Shown here one piece after another: positions 17,134 to 63,338 of a stretch of 64,000 nt of DNA. Under the pieces are notes generated by a model. The model made no database searches. It saw nothing but the letters and a program-made list of their open reading frames with translations, and was not told where the DNA came from. Made by a program: the position numbers and the translations under genes. The stretch is from an uncultured Alphaproteobacteria bacterium (GTDB lineage: Bacteria > Pseudomonadota > Alphaproteobacteria > RF32 > CAG-239), in assembly GCA_934271465.1 (NCBI GenBank), contig CAKQRQ010000007.1, forward strand, positions 14,858 through 78,857. The letters are read 5' to 3'. Position 1 is the first letter of the stretch; each line of letters opens with the position of its first letter.

Positions 17134-17448
17134 TTAAATAATCTCATATTGTCTTTCAATAATTCCGCATAACCGGAACAAAGAAAAGCCCCCTGCGGCA
17201 ACCATCCATACAGAATAAAGCACCAACCAAAATCCGCCAAGTTGCCTTTCAAAGAACAAATCAACGGAAAAAAAGAATAATCCGCTCCCTACACTCATAT
17301 GAAAGAGAGAGAAAACATCAAACAGGCGATGCCAGGAAAAGTCCCTTTTGACAGCCGCAATCAGCAGAAAAATCACCAACAGAACAATTGCCGGAATTCC
17401 GACCAGAGCCACAAACAGCCCGAAATTAGAAAGATACAAATTTTCCAT
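17134..17448 (-). CDS. Small hypothetical membrane protein
   Basis: It is 104 aa with three hydrophobic helices and no recognised motif. Confidence 0.3.
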   Translation of the reverse strand: MENLYLSNFGLFVALVGIPAIVLLVIFLLIAAVKRDFSWHRLFDVFSLFHMSVGSGLFFFSVDLFFERQLGGFWLVLYSVWMVAAGGFSLFRLCGIIERQYEII

Positions 17449-17541: not shown

Positions 17542-19233
17542 TTAATCGCACGGCTCCGTAAAACTTTTTTTAAGCCCGTTTACCGTCACAATCGGCGCAT
17601 CAGGATTGACTGTCGTTAAAAATTTTCCGTCGGAAAAATTTTCAACCCCAGATATATCCTCTGACGCTTTATCTTTTGTACACCACATAATAAAGTTCGT
17701 AACACCGCCATATGGGTTTTCAGAATTAAAGCTAAAAACACTGTTCATAGAACTAAAAGTCAAATCTTTCAAATTAATAATCGTTACATCACGCCCATCT
17801 TCTGAAACAATAGCAACAACACCCACAGCCCTTTTGCTGCCGTCATAATCCTCGGCTTTTCCAAAAGTCTTGTCCTCATACATCACATCTCCAACTTTAG
17901 GCATTGTCCCATTCAGATCAAGATTCAACCTTAAAGAAAGTCTGATGACGCTGGAATAATTGTTCTTAAAATGGGTTGTCCTGTGACCATTTCCCGCATT
18001 AAAGCGCCAAGAACTACTTGAAGCGTTTTCAGAAGATGTCCAATAATATTGATTTTTAAAAGCCTCTGCCTCAACACCTTTAGCGGAAAGCTTATTCAAT
18101 GCCGCATTAATCAGATTCTTGTTATCGCCGTTGGCCCCTGTCGAACCTGCACCATCAATCATTTGTGTTATGTTTGTTCCGTAAAACTCCATCCACTCAC
18201 CGATTGACGGCAAATACCATTTTCCTTGGCCAAAATCTCCTGCCATGTCGCCAACATAAAACTGCATTGCCGCATAAGCGGCTAAAGCTTTTTCGCCAAG
18301 CTGAGCAACAACAGCTTTTGTATTCGCTTGACCATTATACAAACCATCTGGCCTTAATCCTGAGCCGCCGACAGATGCCGTTTTAACACCATCCACAAGC
18401 CCAACAACTCCATAAATATTCTTACCACCACCGGCAATCATTCCAACATTAGCAATCGATACATTATCCGTATGTGTTACAATTCCTGCCAATACTGTAT
18501 CTACTCCACCACTCAAATTAATTCGAACATTTCTAATTTTTGCCGACTTAGTCACCCATATTGCATCCAATTCATCAGCAATTTGACTTGACATATAAAT
18601 CGAAACATTTTCAATAACTGCGTTTGTTCCCTCAAGCCTGAGAGCTCGACAATAATCTTTATTATCATTTTGTATAATTACAACTTGACGCAAGCTCATA
18701 TTTTTACCATTAGAATAAATTGAATGAGCAAAAAGTTCTTCCGTTGCGCGATTTTTAAGCACTATATTTTCAAACGTTACACTATCGGCATTAGCAAATA
18801 AACCGTCCGTCTTAAGCACGTGACCGCCGCCGTTAATTATAACAGAAGAACCTCTAAATGTAAAAGAACTATTAAACACAACATCTTCCGCCAACACAAT
18901 TTTTGCATTATTGGTATTCAATAATTTTTTAAATTCATCAATCGTCGTGCTCTGCGTCACTTTAGTATAACCTTGCGCAACAAGCTCATCTACATTGTCC
19001 GTCAGAGTCACGCTGTCCGACAAATCAGCATAATCCAAATCCCCGCAGAAAACAGTATTATCATCTTTGATATTAAACGGGCACGGGAGCACATCTTTTT
19101 CAAAACAAGAGCATTGAGTGCGGGTCTGGGTATAGCCCAGTTCAGCACAACTTGGACGCTGCAAACAATCGGTTGAAGCGTAAGTATTTGAAATTACACA
19201 AAGTAAAAAAAGCAAAATAAAACCGTGTTTCAT
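17542..19233 (-). CDS. Secreted Cys-rich surface protein, paralog 1. It has a signal peptide, a Cys-rich N-module, a beta-helix-like repeat region, a DUF1566/Lcl-like W-x-L-P-S-x-x-E-W module and a C-terminal KxGDVMY...FAVSEDG module.
   Basis: The first ~70 aa are near-identical to the 27389..29275 ORF. The motifs GDFGQGKWYLPSIGEW and KVGDVMYEDK...GVVAIVSEDGRDVTIINLKDLTFSS are shared with that paralog. Repeated N-x-x-I-x-N segments suggest a parallel beta-helix. Confidence 0.7.
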   Translation of the reverse strand: MKHGFILLFLLCVISNTYASTDCLQRPSCAELGYTQTRTQCSCFEKDVLPCPFNIKDDNTVFCGDLDYADLSDSVTLTDNVDELVAQGYTKVTQSTTIDEFKKLLNTNNAKIVLAEDVVFNSSFTFRGSSVIINGGGHVLKTDGLFANADSVTFENIVLKNRATEELFAHSIYSNGKNMSLRQVVIIQNDNKDYCRALRLEGTNAVIENVSIYMSSQIADELDAIWVTKSAKIRNVRINLSGGVDTVLAGIVTHTDNVSIANVGMIAGGGKNIYGVVGLVDGVKTASVGGSGLRPDGLYNGQANTKAVVAQLGEKALAAYAAMQFYVGDMAGDFGQGKWYLPSIGEWMEFYGTNITQMIDGAGSTGANGDNKNLINAALNKLSAKGVEAEAFKNQYYWTSSENASSSSWRFNAGNGHRTTHFKNNYSSVIRLSLRLNLDLNGTMPKVGDVMYEDKTFGKAEDYDGSKRAVGVVAIVSEDGRDVTIINLKDLTFSSMNSVFSFNSENPYGGVTNFIMWCTKDKASEDISGVENFSDGKFLTTVNPDAPIVTVNGLKKSFTEPCD

Positions 19234-19450
19234 AAGATAAACCCCTTGGTTGACACATCGTTTCTAGCGTTTAAACCAACGTTTAAACGCTATAGTCATT
19301 TGCAAAAGATTTTGAAAAATGCACTTTTTAAGAGAATCGATAACACGTTGAAAAATAACAAAAAATTAAAATTATTGCTTTTTTAATAATTGGCTGATAT
19401 ACTAAAAATAATAGAGCGTTTAAACGTTGGTTTAAATGCTCTATTTTGTG
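19234..19450. promoter_or_regulatory. Candidate invertible promoter element, copy 1 (coordinates +/-1). Two 28 bp dif-like sites (11 bp arm, 6 bp spacer, 11 bp arm) lie in inverted orientation around a sigma70 promoter.
   Basis: Site a (~19264..19291) is TAGCGTTTAAA-CCAACG-TTTAAACGCTA. Site b (~19414..19443) is AGAGCGTTTAAA-CGTTGG-TTTAAATGCTCT. The arms are palindromic and the spacers are reverse-complementary. Between them, on the + strand, lies TTGCTT-17 nt-TGaTATACT (an extended -10), which points away from the minus-strand gene. Confidence 0.55.
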
Positions 19451-19552
19451 GTTAAAATGTTTTTGTTCAATTTCAATGAGGTAAGACTTAAAACATCATC
19501 AAAATTCACTCCTACGTTGTATAAATTAAGTCCAAAAACCAAACATAGGCAT

Positions 19553-19650
19553 CATCAAACCCAAGCGTAAACCTGCCCTCCCTTTTGTTATCCTCAAACC
19601 CGAGCGTAAGCCATTTCTCTCTTCCGTCATTCTCGTGCCCGAGCGTAAGC
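19553..19650. repeat. Three copies of an 11 bp motif CC[AC]AGCGTAA[AG]C at ~39 bp spacing, plus an imperfect palindrome (cattctcgtg...cacgggaatc)
   Basis: The three copies occur in aaacccaagcgtaaacc, aaacccgagcgtaagcc and gtgcccgagcgtaagcg. The region is non-coding, with no ORF of 60 aa or more. Confidence 0.4.
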
Positions 19651-19940
19651 GAGGAATAGACACGGGAATCCAGGAAACAAAGAAGCTTCTTTATTTCACC
19701 TTGATGTCCGGATCAAGTCCGAGTATGACAAATTTTTACTTTGCAACACAAAATAAAAAGTCTGATATTTGGAGCGGATAGAAACAAAAGCCGACTCAAA
19801 ATGTAAAAAAGGCGGCTAGCGTGCGCAAATAATAAGAACTGAGAAAACCGGCGACGGGAGTGTAGATAAGCCTACATGACCGAGCCGGTCTTCGATTGTT
19901 CTTTATTAGTTGCCAGCTAGACGCCTTTTTTACAGACTTT

Positions 19941-23372: not shown

Positions 23373-23447
23373 TGGGGTGTCGCCAAGTGGTAAGGCATCG
23401 GCTTTTGGTGCCGACATTCGTTGGTTCGAATCCAGCCACCCCAGCCA
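23373..23447 (+). tRNA. tRNA-Gln (TTG)
   Basis: The sequence TGGGGTGTCGCCAAGTGGTAAGGCATCGGCTTTTGGTGCCGACATTCGTTGGTTCGAATCCAGCCACCCCAGCCA has a U1-A72 pair, anticodon loop CTTTTGGT (UUG) and an encoded CCA. Confidence 0.9.
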
Positions 23448-26771: not shown

Positions 26772-27197
26772 ATGCTTGATATTTGGGCTAAAAGAGGAAT
26801 TATTTCATTACTAAAAGAGGCATATGAACGGGGCACTATTCTTTCAGGATTAAGTGCCGGTGCAAATTGTTGGTTTGATTGCTTTAGCTCAGACTCATTT
26901 TTAAGCGATGCGGATAAACAAGATTTCAATATTGCAAAAGAAAAATTAGCCATACTCAATGGACTGGGATATCTTAAAGGTGCGTTTTGTCCTCATTATT
27001 TGTTTGAAGCTTATAGACGCCCGGCATTTCTTTATCAAATTCAAAGGTTGAATATTACTGCTTATGGTGTAGATAATAATGTAGCTTTAGTCTTTGTTAA
27101 TGAAAAATTGAATAAAGTTATAAAAAGCCAACCTTTGGCTAAAGCGTTTAAAATTATATGTGAAAACGGAAAAATAATAGAAAAAGAAATTTATTAA
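26772..27197 (+). pseudogene. N-terminally truncated peptidase S51 (dipeptidase E-like) gene fragment
   Basis: ILSGLSAGANCWFD matches the S51 nucleophile elbow (G-x-S-A-G). It is only 141 aa against ~230 aa for intact S51 enzymes. A stop lies immediately upstream, and the fragment is flanked by repeat arrays. Confidence 0.5.
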
Positions 27198-27388: not shown

Positions 27389-29275
27389 TCATTCAAATTC
27401 ACAACTACACCGACCGGATTTTTGAAGTGGTGGAACAATTTCGTTGATTTGCGTTATGCGCTGATAAGGTGCTAATGCCCACCTTATCTTTTGTGTCGTA
27501 TTACCGTAAGGATTTTCCGGATCAAAATTATCAGCCTTGTCCGTAGAGCTGAATGTCAAATCTCGCAACCCGATAATCTTAACCGTTTTACCGTCCTCTG
27601 AAACAGCAAAAACAATTCCGGCGGGCGTTCTGCTTCCGTCATACTTATCTGCCGAACCATAGGACTTATCCGTATACATCACGTCACCGATTTTAGGAAA
27701 TTCAGCCAATTGAGGGACATTTTGAACGATCAAAGCCACGCGGACATAGGCTGTTCCATGTTTCCATAGTTGCGGGTTTTCTCCCCATTTCAAATTTATC
27801 AATTTAATATAGTTAGAACCATCATAAGTTGTAAAATAAAGATGACTAGGCGTTGACTTATCCAAATCAAACGGTTGAGCTATTTCGCTGTCTGCAGCCT
27901 GTAATATACTCAATGAATTATTAATCCATGAAATATTGTTTCCAACCATTCCTTTTGTAAAACTCGTCATTTTAACTTTATTCGCGCCATAAATATCTGC
28001 CCATTCGCCGATGGCTGGAATATACCACTTTCCCTGTCCGAAATCTCCTGTCTTCTTCCCGACATAAAATTGGCTTGCAGCATAGGGCACAAGAGCATTT
28101 TTACCGATTTTTTCAACATTAAGATAAGTTACCCCATACCCATCATACAATTCTTTGGCATCCAGACACAATTCCTGACAATTTCCCAAAACACATTGCC
28201 CGCTTCCCAATTCATATCCTTCTACACAAGTTTTGCAGGAACAATCGTCATTATACGTCACGCAATTTTGTTGATAACACTGATCAAATTCACACGGACA
28301 GCCGCATGCCGATAAGAATCCGCCAATAAACTCCGACACATTCCACGCCAAAACACCGTCAACCATTCCGCCTCCATTGCGCCAACTTGTGACTTTTGAA
28401 GCTCCACCATACGGATTATCCATATCAAAATTATTAAGTGTATTATAATGACTAAAAGTCAAATTTCTTAATCCGATAAATTTAACATCTTTACCGCTGT
28501 CGGATACTGCAAAGATAATCCCGATAGGCGTTTTAGAGCTGTTATAAGCATCCGCCGAGCTAAAAATTTTATCCAAATATATCACATCGCCGATTTTAGG
28601 TTTTGTATCAACGATAGACAAGCCGCTCACACCTGAAACAACTCGCATATACCTTCCGTGCTCAAAGCTCCATTCCATTGAACGACGTCCTGTTTCGGGA
28701 TAAAATAACCATGTTCTTTGGCTGTCATTCAATGTTGATGACCAATACCCGCCAGTTTCCCATTCATCAGCTGCGGCGCCTTTGCTCTGCAGTGCCGAAA
28801 TAGAGCTATTAATCAGAGCTATATTTTCGCCGATTGCGCCTGATTTCTCCATTGCCGCTGTCATTTTATTAACATCTGTTCCATACAAATCCATCCATTC
28901 TCCGATAGACGGCAGCCACCATTTGCCTTGACCGAAATCCCCGCCTTTGTCGCCGATATAAAACAGGCTTGCCGCATAGGGTGCTAACATTCGGCTGCCC
29001 CAGCTTTCAACATACAACTTCGTATTGATTTCGCCATTATACAAAGACGATGTATCTTTGCACCTGCCTTTGCAATTCAAATCCCCGCAGAAAACAGTAT
29101 TATCATCTTTGATATTAAATGGGCAGGGAAGGACATCTTTTTCAAAACATGTGCATTGTTTACGCGTCTGAACATAGCCTAATTCTTCACAACTCGGTTT
29201 TTGCAAACAATCGGTTGAAGCGTAAGTGTTTGAAATTACACAAAATAAAAAAAGTAAAATAAAACCATATTTCAT
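27389..29275 (-). CDS. Secreted Cys-rich surface protein, paralog 2. It has a signal peptide and a Cys-rich N-module, then two tandem [DUF1566/Lcl-like W-x-[LI]-P-[SA]-I-G-E-W + KIGDV[MI]Y...FAVS[ED][DS]G] units separated by a Cys-rich EGF-like linker. I moved the start to MKYGFILLF.
   Basis: The N-terminal 70 aa are near-identical to paralog 1 (STDCLQ[KR]PSC[AE]ELGY...CPFNIKDDNTVFCGDL). GDFGQGKW[WY][LI]P[SA]IGEW occurs twice. PKIGDV[IM]Y.DK...G[IV][IV]FAVS[DE][SD]GK[DT]VK[FI]IGLR[ND]LTFS occurs twice. An RBS (aagggg) lies before the second Met. Confidence 0.7.
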   Translation of the reverse strand: MKYGFILLFLFCVISNTYASTDCLQKPSCEELGYVQTRKQCTCFEKDVLPCPFNIKDDNTVFCGDLNCKGRCKDTSSLYNGEINTKLYVESWGSRMLAPYAASLFYIGDKGGDFGQGKWWLPSIGEWMDLYGTDVNKMTAAMEKSGAIGENIALINSSISALQSKGAAADEWETGGYWSSTLNDSQRTWLFYPETGRRSMEWSFEHGRYMRVVSGVSGLSIVDTKPKIGDVIYLDKIFSSADAYNSSKTPIGIIFAVSDSGKDVKFIGLRNLTFSHYNTLNNFDMDNPYGGASKVTSWRNGGGMVDGVLAWNVSEFIGGFLSACGCPCEFDQCYQQNCVTYNDDCSCKTCVEGYELGSGQCVLGNCQELCLDAKELYDGYGVTYLNVEKIGKNALVPYAASQFYVGKKTGDFGQGKWYIPAIGEWADIYGANKVKMTSFTKGMVGNNISWINNSLSILQAADSEIAQPFDLDKSTPSHLYFTTYDGSNYIKLINLKWGENPQLWKHGTAYVRVALIVQNVPQLAEFPKIGDVMYTDKSYGSADKYDGSRTPAGIVFAVSEDGKTVKIIGLRDLTFSSTDKADNFDPENPYGNTTQKIRWALAPYQRITQINEIVPPLQKSGRCSCEFE

Positions 29276-29490
29276 GAGATAAGCCCCTTGGTTGACGCAT
29301 CGTTTATAGCGTTTAAACCAACGTTTAAACGCTATAGTCATGTACAAGGGATTTTGAAAAATGCACTTTTTAAGAGAATTGATAACGCATTGAAAAATAA
29401 TAAAAAATTAAAATTATTGCTTTTTTAATAATTGGCTGGTATACTCAAAACAATAGAGCGTTTAAACGTTGGTTTAAACGCTCTATTGCG
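29276..29490. promoter_or_regulatory. Candidate invertible promoter element, copy 2, about 90% identical to 19234..19450
   Basis: Site a is ATAGCGTTTAAA-CCAACG-TTTAAACGCTAT and site b is AGAGCGTTTAAA-CGTTGG-TTTAAACGCTCT. Between them on the + strand is TTGCTT-17-TGgTATACT, again pointing away from the minus-strand gene. Confidence 0.55.
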
Positions 29491-29513
29491 TTTTGTTGAT
29501 TTTCAATCACTTA

Positions 29514-37055: not shown

Positions 37056-38999
37056 TTACCCAAACAACGCGAGCACGCTCTGGGCGGAATTGGCCGCAAG
37101 TGAAAGCGCGTTGGTTGCAAGCTGTTGACGGGTTTGGAGCGCCAAATAATTTGCGGATTCCTCGTTCATATCAGCCAAAACTAAATTATCCGCGCCTGTT
37201 TCAAGAACATCTGTCAAAGACTCGGTAAAGTTTTGCCGCGTTTGGATTATGCTGTAATTATTCCCGAGTTCTGATTGAAACGTGCGGATTTTGTTAACAG
37301 CAGCTAAAAGTTCTTGAATTGAGTTGGCAATATCGCCCTGCGTTGTCCATTCAGCTTTGGTCAGTCCTAACGCGGCGGAACTCATATCCTTTCCTTGGAC
37401 TGTTAGTTTGTTGTTTCGGGTTTCGTTGAAGACAACATCAAGTTTCTCATTCTTCAAAAGATTAACACCCTGATATGATGAATCATTAATTAATTTATCA
37501 TATTGCTCAAAGGCTTTATTATATTGGTCGGCATAATCCGTAACTGAAGAAACCTCTGTTTCTTTTTGATATCCTTTAATCCCCTGTTCAGCTTTGGCTT
37601 GAAGAGCATTAACCATTTCATCCAAGAAATCCAGCGATGGCGCAACCTCACCGGCCTCTTCCGCAAATCCGGTCGGAAGATTATTATTGAGCATCGTGTT
37701 GTCGCTAACATTGGTGTCTGTTTTATAAACCTTTCCGTTCCAACCAAACTTTGAACCCGCAACAGCGTTGAAAGTAAGACGATTGTTCTCGTTCCAAAAT
37801 AATCGTCTAGAGCTTTCTATATTCATCTGAACATCAGAAGAATTAAGATTTACCATTAAAGGAGTATACGTTGCAACAAAATTCTCAAGAGTTTTCATAT
37901 TCAATGATGCTTTATCATTTAAGGTTAACTCTCCATAAACAAAACCGCCATCTCCCCCTGTCAGCACCATGTTCAAAGAGCTATTTTCCAGAAATTCCGT
38001 TTTTGAATCGCTAAATCCTCGTTCCGCTGCAACAATATTCAATTGCGCATTGGCAGATACCTTCATGGCCGATAGACCTATAGCTCTTGAGGCTTTTTGG
38101 AGCATATAGATATTCAAATTTCCTGTAACTTGAACATCAGTTCCATTTAAAAGCCCGTGAGACAGAATTTTTTTATCGTCATTTCTTCCTTTTTCATAAA
38201 TAAAATTATTGCCAGTGATGAGCGTATTATTTCCTAAATATATTCCTACGGAACTTATCCCTTTTTGATTATAATCTATTTGTTCCATATTGTCTATCAT
38301 CAGATCAATGCTATTAATCGTAATATTAGACTTGAGGGATAGGTTAACAATTGAACTTCCAACACTCGTTCTCGTCACTCCGCGGATTGAGATATCAGAA
38401 ATAACTAAATCATCAGCTTGAGTCACAATGCCGCTTGTTATATTCAATTTCTCTAAATCAATGTCGATGCTCGAGAACTTGCCGGTATCCGGTTCTTCAA
38501 CGCCGTAATAGCCCACGCCGACAAGGTTTTGTCCGGCTTTTAGGCTGATTTGTCCTTCGGCTTGGATATTGCCATAAATGACGATGTTTCCTTGAACACC
38601 GCTGTCCAAAGCGGCTTTGAGTTCCGCCCAATTACTTGCAACCGCCGCAACGTTTTCTTGACTTGCAAACCATTCTTTGCTCGGGATTTTGGTTGCTGCT
38701 AGGGCTTCCGTTGCTATGGCCGAGGCTTGTTCGAGGAACGACACGCCGCTTGTCAGGCCTTGCGTTGCCGCTTGAATGGTTTGGATCCCCTGTCCCATCG
38801 CGTCTAATAAGGCGTCTAAATCCGAGGCTCTGTTTGTGAGGGCTCTGGCTTGGTAATAACTTGACGCATTATCAATAGCGGAATTGACTTTCTTGCCGGT
38901 TGAAAGCCTTTCCTGCGTCGTGTTCATTTGTTTGGAGATGTTTTTGAGGCTGTTTAAGTTACTCCGCATTGACGCCGTCAGCGTGATACTCTTTACCAT
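37056..38999 (-). CDS. fliC: Flagellin (647 aa) with conserved N- and C-terminal helical domains and a large central variable domain
   Basis: The N-terminus TQERLSTGKKVNSAIDNASSYYQARALTNRASDLDALLDAMGQGIQTIQAA matches the flagellin D0/D1 region. The C-terminus ALQTRQQLATNALSLAANSAQSVLALFG matches the flagellin C-terminal helix. Confidence 0.7.
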   Translation of the reverse strand: MVKSITLTASMRSNLNSLKNISKQMNTTQERLSTGKKVNSAIDNASSYYQARALTNRASDLDALLDAMGQGIQTIQAATQGLTSGVSFLEQASAIATEALAATKIPSKEWFASQENVAAVASNWAELKAALDSGVQGNIVIYGNIQAEGQISLKAGQNLVGVGYYGVEEPDTGKFSSIDIDLEKLNITSGIVTQADDLVISDISIRGVTRTSVGSSIVNLSLKSNITINSIDLMIDNMEQIDYNQKGISSVGIYLGNNTLITGNNFIYEKGRNDDKKILSHGLLNGTDVQVTGNLNIYMLQKASRAIGLSAMKVSANAQLNIVAAERGFSDSKTEFLENSSLNMVLTGGDGGFVYGELTLNDKASLNMKTLENFVATYTPLMVNLNSSDVQMNIESSRRLFWNENNRLTFNAVAGSKFGWNGKVYKTDTNVSDNTMLNNNLPTGFAEEAGEVAPSLDFLDEMVNALQAKAEQGIKGYQKETEVSSVTDYADQYNKAFEQYDKLINDSSYQGVNLLKNEKLDVVFNETRNNKLTVQGKDMSSAALGLTKAEWTTQGDIANSIQELLAAVNKIRTFQSELGNNYSIIQTRQNFTESLTDVLETGADNLVLADMNEESANYLALQTRQQLATNALSLAANSAQSVLALFG

Positions 39000-54915: not shown

Positions 54916-59100
<4,185 letters not shown>

Positions 59101-59114
59101 CTAACTCCTTTACA

Positions 59115-63338
<4,224 letters not shown>

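Follow-up and report, generated by a model that had tools for sequence, protein, structure and literature searches.

Gene organization and architecture of the putative switch region

The window analyzed in this study is a 64-kb stretch of DNA from an uncultured gut alphaproteobacterium. At positions 29276-29490 it carries a short non-coding module, immediately upstream of a minus-strand gene encoding a secreted, Cys-rich protein of 628 amino acids (aa). A second module of the same kind precedes a paralogous gene in the same window, and the two are referred to below as copy 2 (29276-29490) and copy 1, respectively. Each module consists of two palindromic sites with a promoter enclosed between them, the layout of a putative inversion switch for the adjacent gene. 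The coordinates of all features are listed in Table 1.

The sequence of copy 2 agrees with a preliminary description of this DNA in all respects except the lengths of the sites and their arms: the sites, given there as 28 bp, are 30 bp as written. The sites can be written with 12-bp arms around a 6-bp centre, but the palindromic arms are in fact 13 bp long, around a 4-bp centre. In the latter reading the proximal site is ATAGCGTTTAAAC-CAAC-GTTTAAACGCTAT and the distal site AGAGCGTTTAAAC-GTTG-GTTTAAACGCTCT, so that each site of copy 2 has perfectly palindromic 13-bp arms and an asymmetric centre, CAAC or GTTG. The distal 6-nt centre CGTTGG is the reverse complement of the proximal centre CCAACG. 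The module measures about 180 bp from site to site, and the interior proposed to flip, about 145 bp, contains no open reading frame (ORF). A search of the window with the site pattern GCGTTTAAA-N6-TTTAAACGC, allowing up to three mismatches, returned exactly four matches, which form two pairs; none of 100 shuffled sequences reached four. No RNA family was matched in or near the switch in Rfam.

The enclosed promoter TTGCTT-17-TGgTATACT was confirmed in the sequence as previously described. It agrees with the sigma-70 consensus at 8 of 12 positions, with an extended TG in addition, and scores under the threshold of the consensus scan. Its direction is away from the gene, whose ATG lies at 29275, and this corresponds to an OFF orientation. 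All promoter-like matches in the copy 2 switch fall on the strand facing away from the gene, and the promoter scan gave no gene-facing match in copy 2. Inversion of copy 2 in silico brought the -10 element to about 10 nt ahead of the proximal site, some 70 nt upstream of the ATG. The two ON junctions produced in this way are GGCTGGTATACTCAAAACAATAGAGCGTTTAAACGTTGGTTTAAACGCTATAAACGATGCGTCAACC and CAACAAAACGCAATAGAGCGTTTAAACCAACGTTTAAACGCTATAGTCATGTACAAGGG. One junction leads from the promoter -10 through the site to the CAACCAAGGGG block of the 5' untranslated region (5'UTR), a block common to most aligned switches, and the other leads from the distal flank through the site to AGTCATGTACAAGGG.

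Table 1. Coordinates of the two switch loci in the window, and complete switches collected from other contigs.
Feature	Position	Strand	Length	Sequence or remarks
Copy 2, controlled gene	27389-29275	-	628 aa	Secreted, Cys-rich (ORF and translation)
Copy 2, 5'UTR	29276-29305	-		Between proximal site and ATG; ribosome-binding site (RBS) AAGGGG at 29284-29289 (plus strand CCCCTT)
Copy 2, proximal (left) site	29306-29335		30 bp	ATAGCGTTTAAA-CCAACG-TTTAAACGCTAT; 6-nt centre CCAACG at 29318-29323
Copy 2, interior of putative invertible segment	29336-29454			A/T-rich region and invariant TTGAAAAA block upstream of the promoter; gene-proximal half variable (alignments)
Copy 2, promoter TTGCTT-17-TATACT	29417-29445	+		TTGCTT 29417-29422; extended TG 29437-29438; TATACT 29440-29445
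Copy 2, distal (right) site	29455-29484		30 bp	AGAGCGTTTAAA-CGTTGG-TTTAAACGCTCT; centre CGTTGG at 29467-29472
Copy 2, putative terminator	29451-29498	+		Extended 17-pair palindrome of the distal site, then T-rich tail; intrinsic-terminator-like on the promoter strand (terminator scan)
Copy 1, paralogous controlled gene	17542-19233	-	563 aa
Copy 1, proximal site	19264-19293			CTAGCGTTTAAAC-CAAC-GTTTAAACGCTAT
Copy 1, promoter TTGCTT-17-TATACT	19375-19403	+		Also directed away from its gene
Copy 1, distal site	19413-19442			AGAGCGTTTAAAC-GTTG-GTTTAAATGCTCT, one arm mismatch; T-rich tail, terminator-like at 19410-19455
Homologous block, copy 2 and copy 1	29074-29487 and 19032-19445		414 bp	89.4% identity, ungapped; switch, 5'UTR and first 67 codons
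Other 12 complete switches				L012 (metagenome-assembled genome of another species), L038/L039, L040/L041/L046, L051, L053, L058, L060, L061, L062, L065, L068, L072
Independent assemblies of window loci				Copy 1: L001-L003, L050; copy 2: L037, L069, L070

Homology between the two copies in the window

Alignment of the two copies substantiated the claim of a second copy about 90% identical to the first. The 215-bp module of copy 2 matches 19235-19445 with 92.9% identity over 211 bp, and the homologous block as a whole extends over 414 bp. By segment, identity amounts to 86.1% in the N-terminal coding part, 90% in the 5'UTR, 96.7% in each site, 96.6% in the promoter and 90.1% in the other interior. 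The similarity does not extend across the surrounding region but stops abruptly at both ends: in the 100 nt past either end, identity is down to 23-28%, which is the random level, and the block ends within 3 bp of the distal repeat. Copy 2 is not part of a large segmental duplication, since the homologous block is only 414 bp long and ends sharply on both sides; a duplication of the whole region was rejected on the same grounds.

The proteins of the two copies have diverged outside their N-termini, as had been noticed before; they are 88% identical over residues 1-67, and elsewhere 41-43% within a repeated domain of about 220 residues. Differences in the shared N-terminal coding part are distributed 7/4/17 over the three codon positions and are thus mostly third-position changes. 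The shared unit is therefore not the switch alone; it comprises the switch, the 5'UTR, the signal peptide and a Cys-rich N-terminal module. In the copy 1 region, the sole promoter-like match on the gene strand falls within the distal site.

A family of putative switch loci in gut metagenomes

Further loci were gathered by scans for the site pattern and by look-ups of contigs encoding homologues of the controlled protein, covering gut-metagenome contigs and a related metagenome-assembled genome (MAG). A total of 14 distinct complete two-site switches were found, including the two window copies, with at least five distinct loci in each of two metagenome samples. The proposal of a family of independently switchable loci is thereby supported. 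At 12 of the 14 loci the flanking gene is present on the contig, and it always belongs to the same secreted Cys-rich family; the contigs of L050 and L058 end short of it. The switch loci have different genomic neighbourhoods. Three loci from one sample (L051, L053 and L062) are 90-93% alike over the switch and about 150 N-terminal residues, and then diverge into proteins of 489, 1112 and 534 residues. Because these paralogues show the same shared 5' part and divergent remainder, the pattern seen in the window is general. Scanning 185,579 species genomes for the site pattern revealed only one true relative, the MAG locus L012 labelled Alphaproteobacteria, and otherwise single chance palindromes; no match to the pattern was found in viral contigs.

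Conservation was calculated as mean pairwise identity over 15 aligned switch sequences representing the 14 distinct loci. The distal site is the most conserved part (96.4%), followed by the proximal site (91.6%) and the promoter (85.9%), while the rest of the interior (67.2%), the 5'UTR (67.0%) and the distal flank (43.4%) vary much more. This bears on the earlier suggestion that selection maintains the switch itself, of which one part stands. The similarity of 90% within one genome is not in itself evidence of selection, because the homology runs 200 bp into coding sequence and signs of gene conversion are present. The comparison among loci, where sites and promoter are the best conserved parts, does support selection acting on them.

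Two types of site centre were distinguished. Centres CCAACG/CGTTGG (AA type) are present in 12 of the 15 aligned sequences, equal to 11 distinct loci, and centres CCACCG/CGGTGG (AC type) in L012, L060 and L072. No mixed pair of centres occurs among the 15 sequences, and the two centres of a switch are always reverse complements. The switches of L038 and L072 share their genomic position, downstream of genes for a cupin and a DEAD helicase, but not their centre type. Matched centres that change together are what strand exchange demands, and they are not demanded of operators, hairpins or transposon ends.

A third site was observed in L065 (L065:11921-11944), starting about 20 bp past the stop codon of the controlled gene at the contig end, an indication that units of switch and gene can follow one another head to tail. 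In a subset of switches (window 19446-19521 and 29488-29510; L038, L047, L053, L060, L065, L072), 25-90 nt are conserved past the distal site, with the sequence …TATTTTAAG..TTATC..ATTGAAAwT.AA.AAAAA…. Within the switch, an invariant TTGAAAA block that precedes the -35 element by about 20 nt resembles this distal-flank block, and conserved A/T-rich blocks with TTGAAAA motifs are thus found both inside the switch and in its distal flank. These blocks could be the site of an accessory protein, or merely ancestral duplicated DNA.

ON-type arrangements of the promoter

The orientation of the promoter was judged from two loci in which the same promoter faces a gene of the family. In L042 the promoter (AAAATTATTGCTTTTTTAA-CGTTTGGCTGATATACT) has a fixed position some 45 nt upstream of a gene of the family, which it faces, and no sites are present. 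In L063 a lone proximal site lies between the promoter and the gene into which it reads. When the L040 switch is inverted in silico, L063 is colinear with it over interior, promoter, site, UTR and ATG, with a score of 122 for the ON form and 82 for the OFF form. As L063 and L042 both carry the promoter facing family genes, the promoter call is sound, and so is the reading of the window copies as OFF, which had been described as apparent only. The match of L063 to the inverted form of L040 further indicates that the inverted arrangement has come about naturally, the junction being at the site.

The distal site as putative terminator

In both window copies the distal site together with its tail scores as an intrinsic terminator, whereas the context of the proximal site does not. 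The palindrome of the distal site comprises 16-17 pairs across the two copies. The predicted OFF transcripts fold with -26.1 kcal/mol (z = -7.9) in copy 2 and -20.0 kcal/mol (z = -5.9) in copy 1. The predicted ON leader, by RNA folding, forms an 11-pair hairpin only, without a U tract. On these predictions, the distal site probably terminates the OFF-state transcript, and it may also insulate the neighbouring genes from the outward-firing promoter.

Proteins encoded by the controlled genes

The 628-aa protein of copy 2 has a signal peptide, a conserved N-terminal module of 67 aa and two repeats of about 220 aa that resemble DUF1566/Lcl_C, the Pfam match to Lcl_C being weak. A total of 109 homologues were found, all of them from gut metagenomes or MAGs, and the exact copy 1 protein is on record in contigs from Hadza and other human gut metagenomes (L001-L003). 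The AlphaFold model of the copy 2 protein has a mean predicted local distance difference test score of 80. No significant fold match to this model was returned from the PDB by Foldseek, and neither a PDB sequence match nor an NCBIfam match was obtained for the protein; the sole structural trace is a local match of 28 residues to the C-terminal domain of Legionella Lcl. The products may act at the cell surface or as adhesins. The genes are intact, and their N-terminal differences lie mostly in third codon positions; they are therefore regarded as expressed genes that need a promoter.

The DUF1566/Lcl_C-like domain of about 220 residues also forms the central domain of many flagellins (homologues P0047-P0109) of related metagenomic bacteria. 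These flagellins have Pfam Flagellin_N and Flagellin_C at their ends, and their central domain is presumably surface-exposed. Sharing of this domain with the flagellin encoded in the window (37056-38999) was rejected on comparison. Directly downstream of the copy 1 gene lies a conserved ORF of 104 aa (17134-17448, minus strand), which is also called in L001-L003 and has no family match. It may be co-transcribed with the switched gene.

Proposed mechanism of switching

Taken together, we consider it likely that the region 29306-29484 is, or very recently was, an inversion switch that phase-varies the gene at 27389-29275. The switch is probably an invertible promoter activated in trans, and the loci as a whole are most likely a multi-locus invertible-promoter system of uncultured gut Alphaproteobacteria with remarkably clean loxP-like sites, an unlinked recombinase and a striking bias to OFF. 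The model assumes a site-specific recombinase whose gene lies elsewhere in the genome; this enzyme would bind the four 13-bp arms (consensus WAKAGCGTTTAAAC), exchange strands within the asymmetric centres CCAACG and CGTTGG, and flip the interior of about 145 bp. In the OFF state, which is the assembled one, TTGCTT-17-TATACT would fire away from the gene, and its transcript would meet the hairpin of 16-17 bp formed by the distal site and then the U-rich tail. After inversion, the promoter would lie about 10 nt from the proximal site and transcribe through this site and the RBS AAGGGG into the gene; in the ON transcript the proximal site would form a shorter hairpin without U tail. The copy at 19264-19442 and at least 12 further loci in related gut Alphaproteobacteria would operate likewise. 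The outcome would be a family of genes, each switchable on its own, that encode secreted, Cys-rich, DUF1566-like proteins, with most loci OFF in most cells. The sequences show how the sites are built, that sites and promoter are conserved, that the centres match, that ON-type arrangements exist in nature and that the window and fetched loci have no linked recombinase; present-day inversion, the recombinase class, the role of the distal site as terminator and that of the products as surface proteins or adhesins are inferred from them.

The site can also be read as TTTAAACC-AA-CGTTTAAA, and the sole centre variant changes exactly the central dinucleotide, from AA to AC, in both sites. At 26 bp, the sites of the serine invertases Hin, Gin and Cin have half-sites of 12 bp on either side of a 2-bp crossover dinucleotide, which both sites have in common. 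Such systems also have a cis-acting recombinational enhancer bound by Fis; conserved A/T-rich blocks, described above, are found in and next to the present switches. In the present sites the base beside the central dinucleotide is also asymmetric in every copy, so that the asymmetry extends over 4 bp against the 2 bp needed by a serine invertase, and no invertase was found in the window or the fetched loci. The asymmetric neighbouring base fits a longer overlap region better than a 2-bp crossover. A tyrosine recombinase appears slightly ahead of a serine invertase as the candidate class. Recombination by XerC/D is unlikely, because the sites have no sequence similarity to dif.

A more far-reaching version of the model is unlikely in our estimation. 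In this version the sites would be substrates of an unrecognised master recombinase of uncultured gut Alphaproteobacteria, with invariant 13-bp arms common to all loci; the interchangeable AA and AC centres would be compatibility classes that prevent recombination between switches, the single enzyme would run a strongly OFF-biased one-of-many expression programme for a family of secreted proteins, and the distal site would also be a terminator that shields neighbouring genes in the OFF state.

Evidence against switching and alternative explanations

Several observations weigh against an inversion switch. Every complete two-site switch is in the OFF orientation, at all 14 loci and in five further independent assemblies of the window loci, these being consensus assemblies that report the majority orientation. 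Heterogeneity of orientation, set as a test in the preliminary description, was thus not seen in the assemblies. L063, the only ON-type arrangement with a site, has no distal site and cannot switch back. Six more OFF observations come from gene calls of 649/650 aa (P0001 cluster) that begin with MTIAFKRWF; their ATG lies inside the switch and is present in the OFF form only. Some contigs break at the switch, where the ON and OFF sequences have already differed for 14-20 nt; these breaks were considered as a sign of inversion and rejected, as a position past the divergence point fits repeats between paralogues better. No tyrosine or serine recombinase was detected in the window by Pfam scans of 50 ORFs, which include none of Phage_integrase type, and tblastn with Hin and XerD queries found nothing in 568 kb, that is, the window and 64 fetched loci. 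Finally, the 5' modules are mosaic. P0122, an orthologue of the copy 2 protein from another sample, carries the copy 1-type N-terminal residues QRPSCAELGYTQTRTQCSC on a copy 2 body, and L069 and L070 encode an identical 628-aa protein behind switch interiors that differ in their gene-proximal half, where L069 resembles the L060 switch. Both cases look like signs of gene conversion between 5' modules.

With regard to the uniform OFF state, look-ups of exact proteins gave contigs for 10 of 12, on which all complete switches were again OFF; L042 and L066/L067 have no switch. A consensus assembly reports the majority state, and with at least five loci per genome, of which one or few would be expressed, each locus would be OFF in most cells.

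As to the enzyme, no invertase gene lies inside or adjoins the segment of about 145 bp, which has no ORF, and no Hin-like match was found in the window or the fetched loci. Since no recombinase is present in either, any enzyme must act in trans, as a serine invertase of the Mpi type would. One candidate was examined, a protein of 380 aa (L038:9539-10681; L039:6571-7713) encoded 3.6 kb from a switch, in which two Pfam domains typical of large serine recombinases, 'Recombinase' and the zinc ribbon, are present. As it has no resolvase catalytic domain and its gene adjoins an RloB gene, this protein was rejected, and it is probably an unrelated remnant of a mobile element.

The strongest rival explanation, though an unlikely one, is a fossil or locked switch, which was once invertible or was copied from such a switch, and whose copies are kept alike by duplication and ongoing gene conversion, among paralogues, of a 5' cassette made up of switch, signal peptide and N-terminal domain, and not by selection for switching. 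The OFF state of every assembly, the extension of the homology into 200 bp of coding sequence, the mosaic 5' modules of P0122 and L069/L070 and the failure to find a recombinase in the window or the fetched loci are all in line with it, as are degenerate remnants of switches and sites that stand alone. At L044:9100-9140, an intergenic gap without a switch holds a single distal-type site and a T run, and truncated switches consisting of the distal site and the -10 region, without a gene, are found at L055:10085-10150 and L059:2670-2735; all three appear to have come from former switches by decay or deletion. A fossil, however, does not account for sites that remain 92-96% conserved where the switch interiors are down to about 67%, or for the joint change of both centres in three loci, which nothing would couple without recombination. 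Moreover, a promoter that is permanently OFF would leave intact genes under purifying selection unexpressed.

It is far less probable that the 30-bp sites are the terminal inverted repeats of a non-autonomous transposon of about 180 bp with an outward promoter, similar to a miniature inverted-repeat transposable element (MITE) or a Correia element. The size of the module, its 30-bp inverted repeat ends, the many copies per genome, the solo ends and truncated copies, and the end of the homology within 3 bp of the distal repeat would conform to such an element. However, no target-site duplication is present at either window copy, and complete copies are found only upstream of one protein family and in constant orientation, with homology continuing through the 5'UTR into the gene. 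Each end is a perfect palindrome with an asymmetric centre, which is the layout of a recombinase site and unlike a transposon end. The lack of the pattern in viral contigs and its occurrence in the species genomes as single palindromes only, beyond the one related MAG, are also against a mobile element.

A purely regulatory role, in which the palindromes are operators of a looping dimeric protein and/or terminator hairpins and the gene is driven by another promoter, has very little probability: each site is indeed a perfect operator-type palindrome, the distal site scores as an intrinsic terminator, and the solo site of L044 with its adjoining T run is terminator-like as well, but neither an operator nor a hairpin needs asymmetric, reverse-complementary centres that change together, copy 2 has no gene-facing promoter-like match and the only one of copy 1 lies inside the distal site, and L063 and L042 suggest that the same promoter drives family genes when it faces them.

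Comparison with known invertible promoters

Invertible promoters have been well catalogued, PhaseFinder and DeepInverton having predicted thousands of them (PMC11602134), and the conceptual gain from the present loci is for this reason modest. General inverton catalogues were the only relevant literature found, and nothing was found on this switch family. The switch is thus an example of a well-known kind of on/off switch, while the family itself is apparently undescribed.

By analogy, the closest functional counterpart of the inversion switch proposed here is the mpl (P35) lipoprotein family of Mycoplasma penetrans, followed by the Mpi system of Bacteroides fragilis. Among the 38 mpl genes, the majority are believed to be switched independently, each by its own short invertible promoter (Horino et al. 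2003, as summarized in PMC2268961). In both systems, paralogous genes for surface or secreted proteins are numerous and dispersed, each with a small cassette that holds only a promoter; the recombinases are outside the cassettes, and at a given time most copies should be OFF. The present loci differ in belonging to a Gram-negative gut alphaproteobacterium and to an unrelated protein family, Cys-rich and DUF1566/Lcl_C-like, and in having full palindromes of 30 bp with an asymmetric centre, where M. penetrans has simple inverted repeats that are short. Its mpl genes have candidate tyrosine recombinases close by and inversion was demonstrated, whereas none is linked to the loci described here, for which inversion is proposed.

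In B. fragilis, the serine invertase Mpi/FinA acts globally at hix-like repeats to invert the promoters of loci for polysaccharides and surface proteins, and this trans-acting enzyme can flip promoter cassettes of about 190 bp (Coyne et al. 2003; Patrick et al. 2003; both as described in PMC11602134). The resemblance lies in promoter cassettes of about 150-200 bp at many unlinked loci, the implied single trans-acting recombinase, and a gut commensal that varies its surface. The phylum, promoter type and repeat sequence are different, and the targets here are single protein genes, not polysaccharide operons. At the level of the site, the centre AAACC-AA-CGTTT of the present family resembles the hixL centre, which is AAACC-AA-GGTTT.

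The fimS element of Escherichia coli occupies just one locus, is 314 bp long and has 9-bp repeats, with the tyrosine recombinases FimB and FimE encoded next to it. Like fimS, the present element is a putative promoter-only invertible element directly upstream of a gene for a putative surface structure, and a directional recombinase could likewise account for a strong OFF bias. Unlike fimS, it exists at many loci, has 30-bp sites and no linked recombinase. The sites themselves are organized like loxP, FRT and dif, with two inverted arms that each take up one monomer, and an asymmetric centre that sets directionality and is identical in partner sites. Simple sites of this class have arms of 11-14 bp and an asymmetric overlap region of 6-8 bp; the loxP site has inverted arms of 13 bp and an 8-bp spacer, and dif has an 11-6-11 layout. 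The present sites, with perfect 13-bp arms and AA or AC centres matched in every pair, including the three pairs with the CACC variant, are compatible with this class without being diagnostic of it. Only four of their central six bp are asymmetric, and no cognate tyrosine recombinase gene was found in the linked DNA searched.

If the switches are active, uncultured gut Alphaproteobacteria in Hadza and other human gut metagenomes would vary a secreted Cys-rich protein family by promoter inversion, in parallel to the variation of surface molecules in Bacteroides and mycoplasmas. The compact loxP-like site of 30 bp, with its natural centre variants, would then come with a recombinase that could serve as an orthogonal tool. 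The uniform OFF state across about 20 assemblies is a concrete, testable statement on the behaviour of these loci in the gut.

Genomic context of the window

The window is ordinary chromosome of a flagellated Gram-negative bacterium with a G+C content of 41.8%. Pfam matches include EF-Tu, EF-G, NusG, RuvABC, MotAB, flagellin and LptD, and the proteins covered by the Pfam scans are all of housekeeping type or without an assigned function. Two very large ORFs at 54916-59094 and 59115-63338 are presumed to be rpoB and rpoC.

Three repeated features were observed in the intergenic region by copy 1, at 19551-19650, 19626-19729 and 19802-19934. They comprise a 39-nt tandem pair containing CCCGAGCGTAAGC, an element of about 100 nt that is also present in L056 and L072, and an element of about 130 nt with 19-nt inverted repeat ends that recurs with 92% identity at a different locus in L072. 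No Rfam family matched these repeats, which may be repeats similar to repetitive extragenic palindromic (REP) sequences or MITEs, or small RNAs.

The segment 23373-27200, between the two switch loci, may be what is left of an integrated island. A transfer RNA gene (23373-23444) comes first in it, then genes of the DUF4357/RAMA and DUF3800 types, then some 1.3 kb in which no long ORF occurs, and finally a fragment of a truncated Peptidase_S51 (26772-27197).

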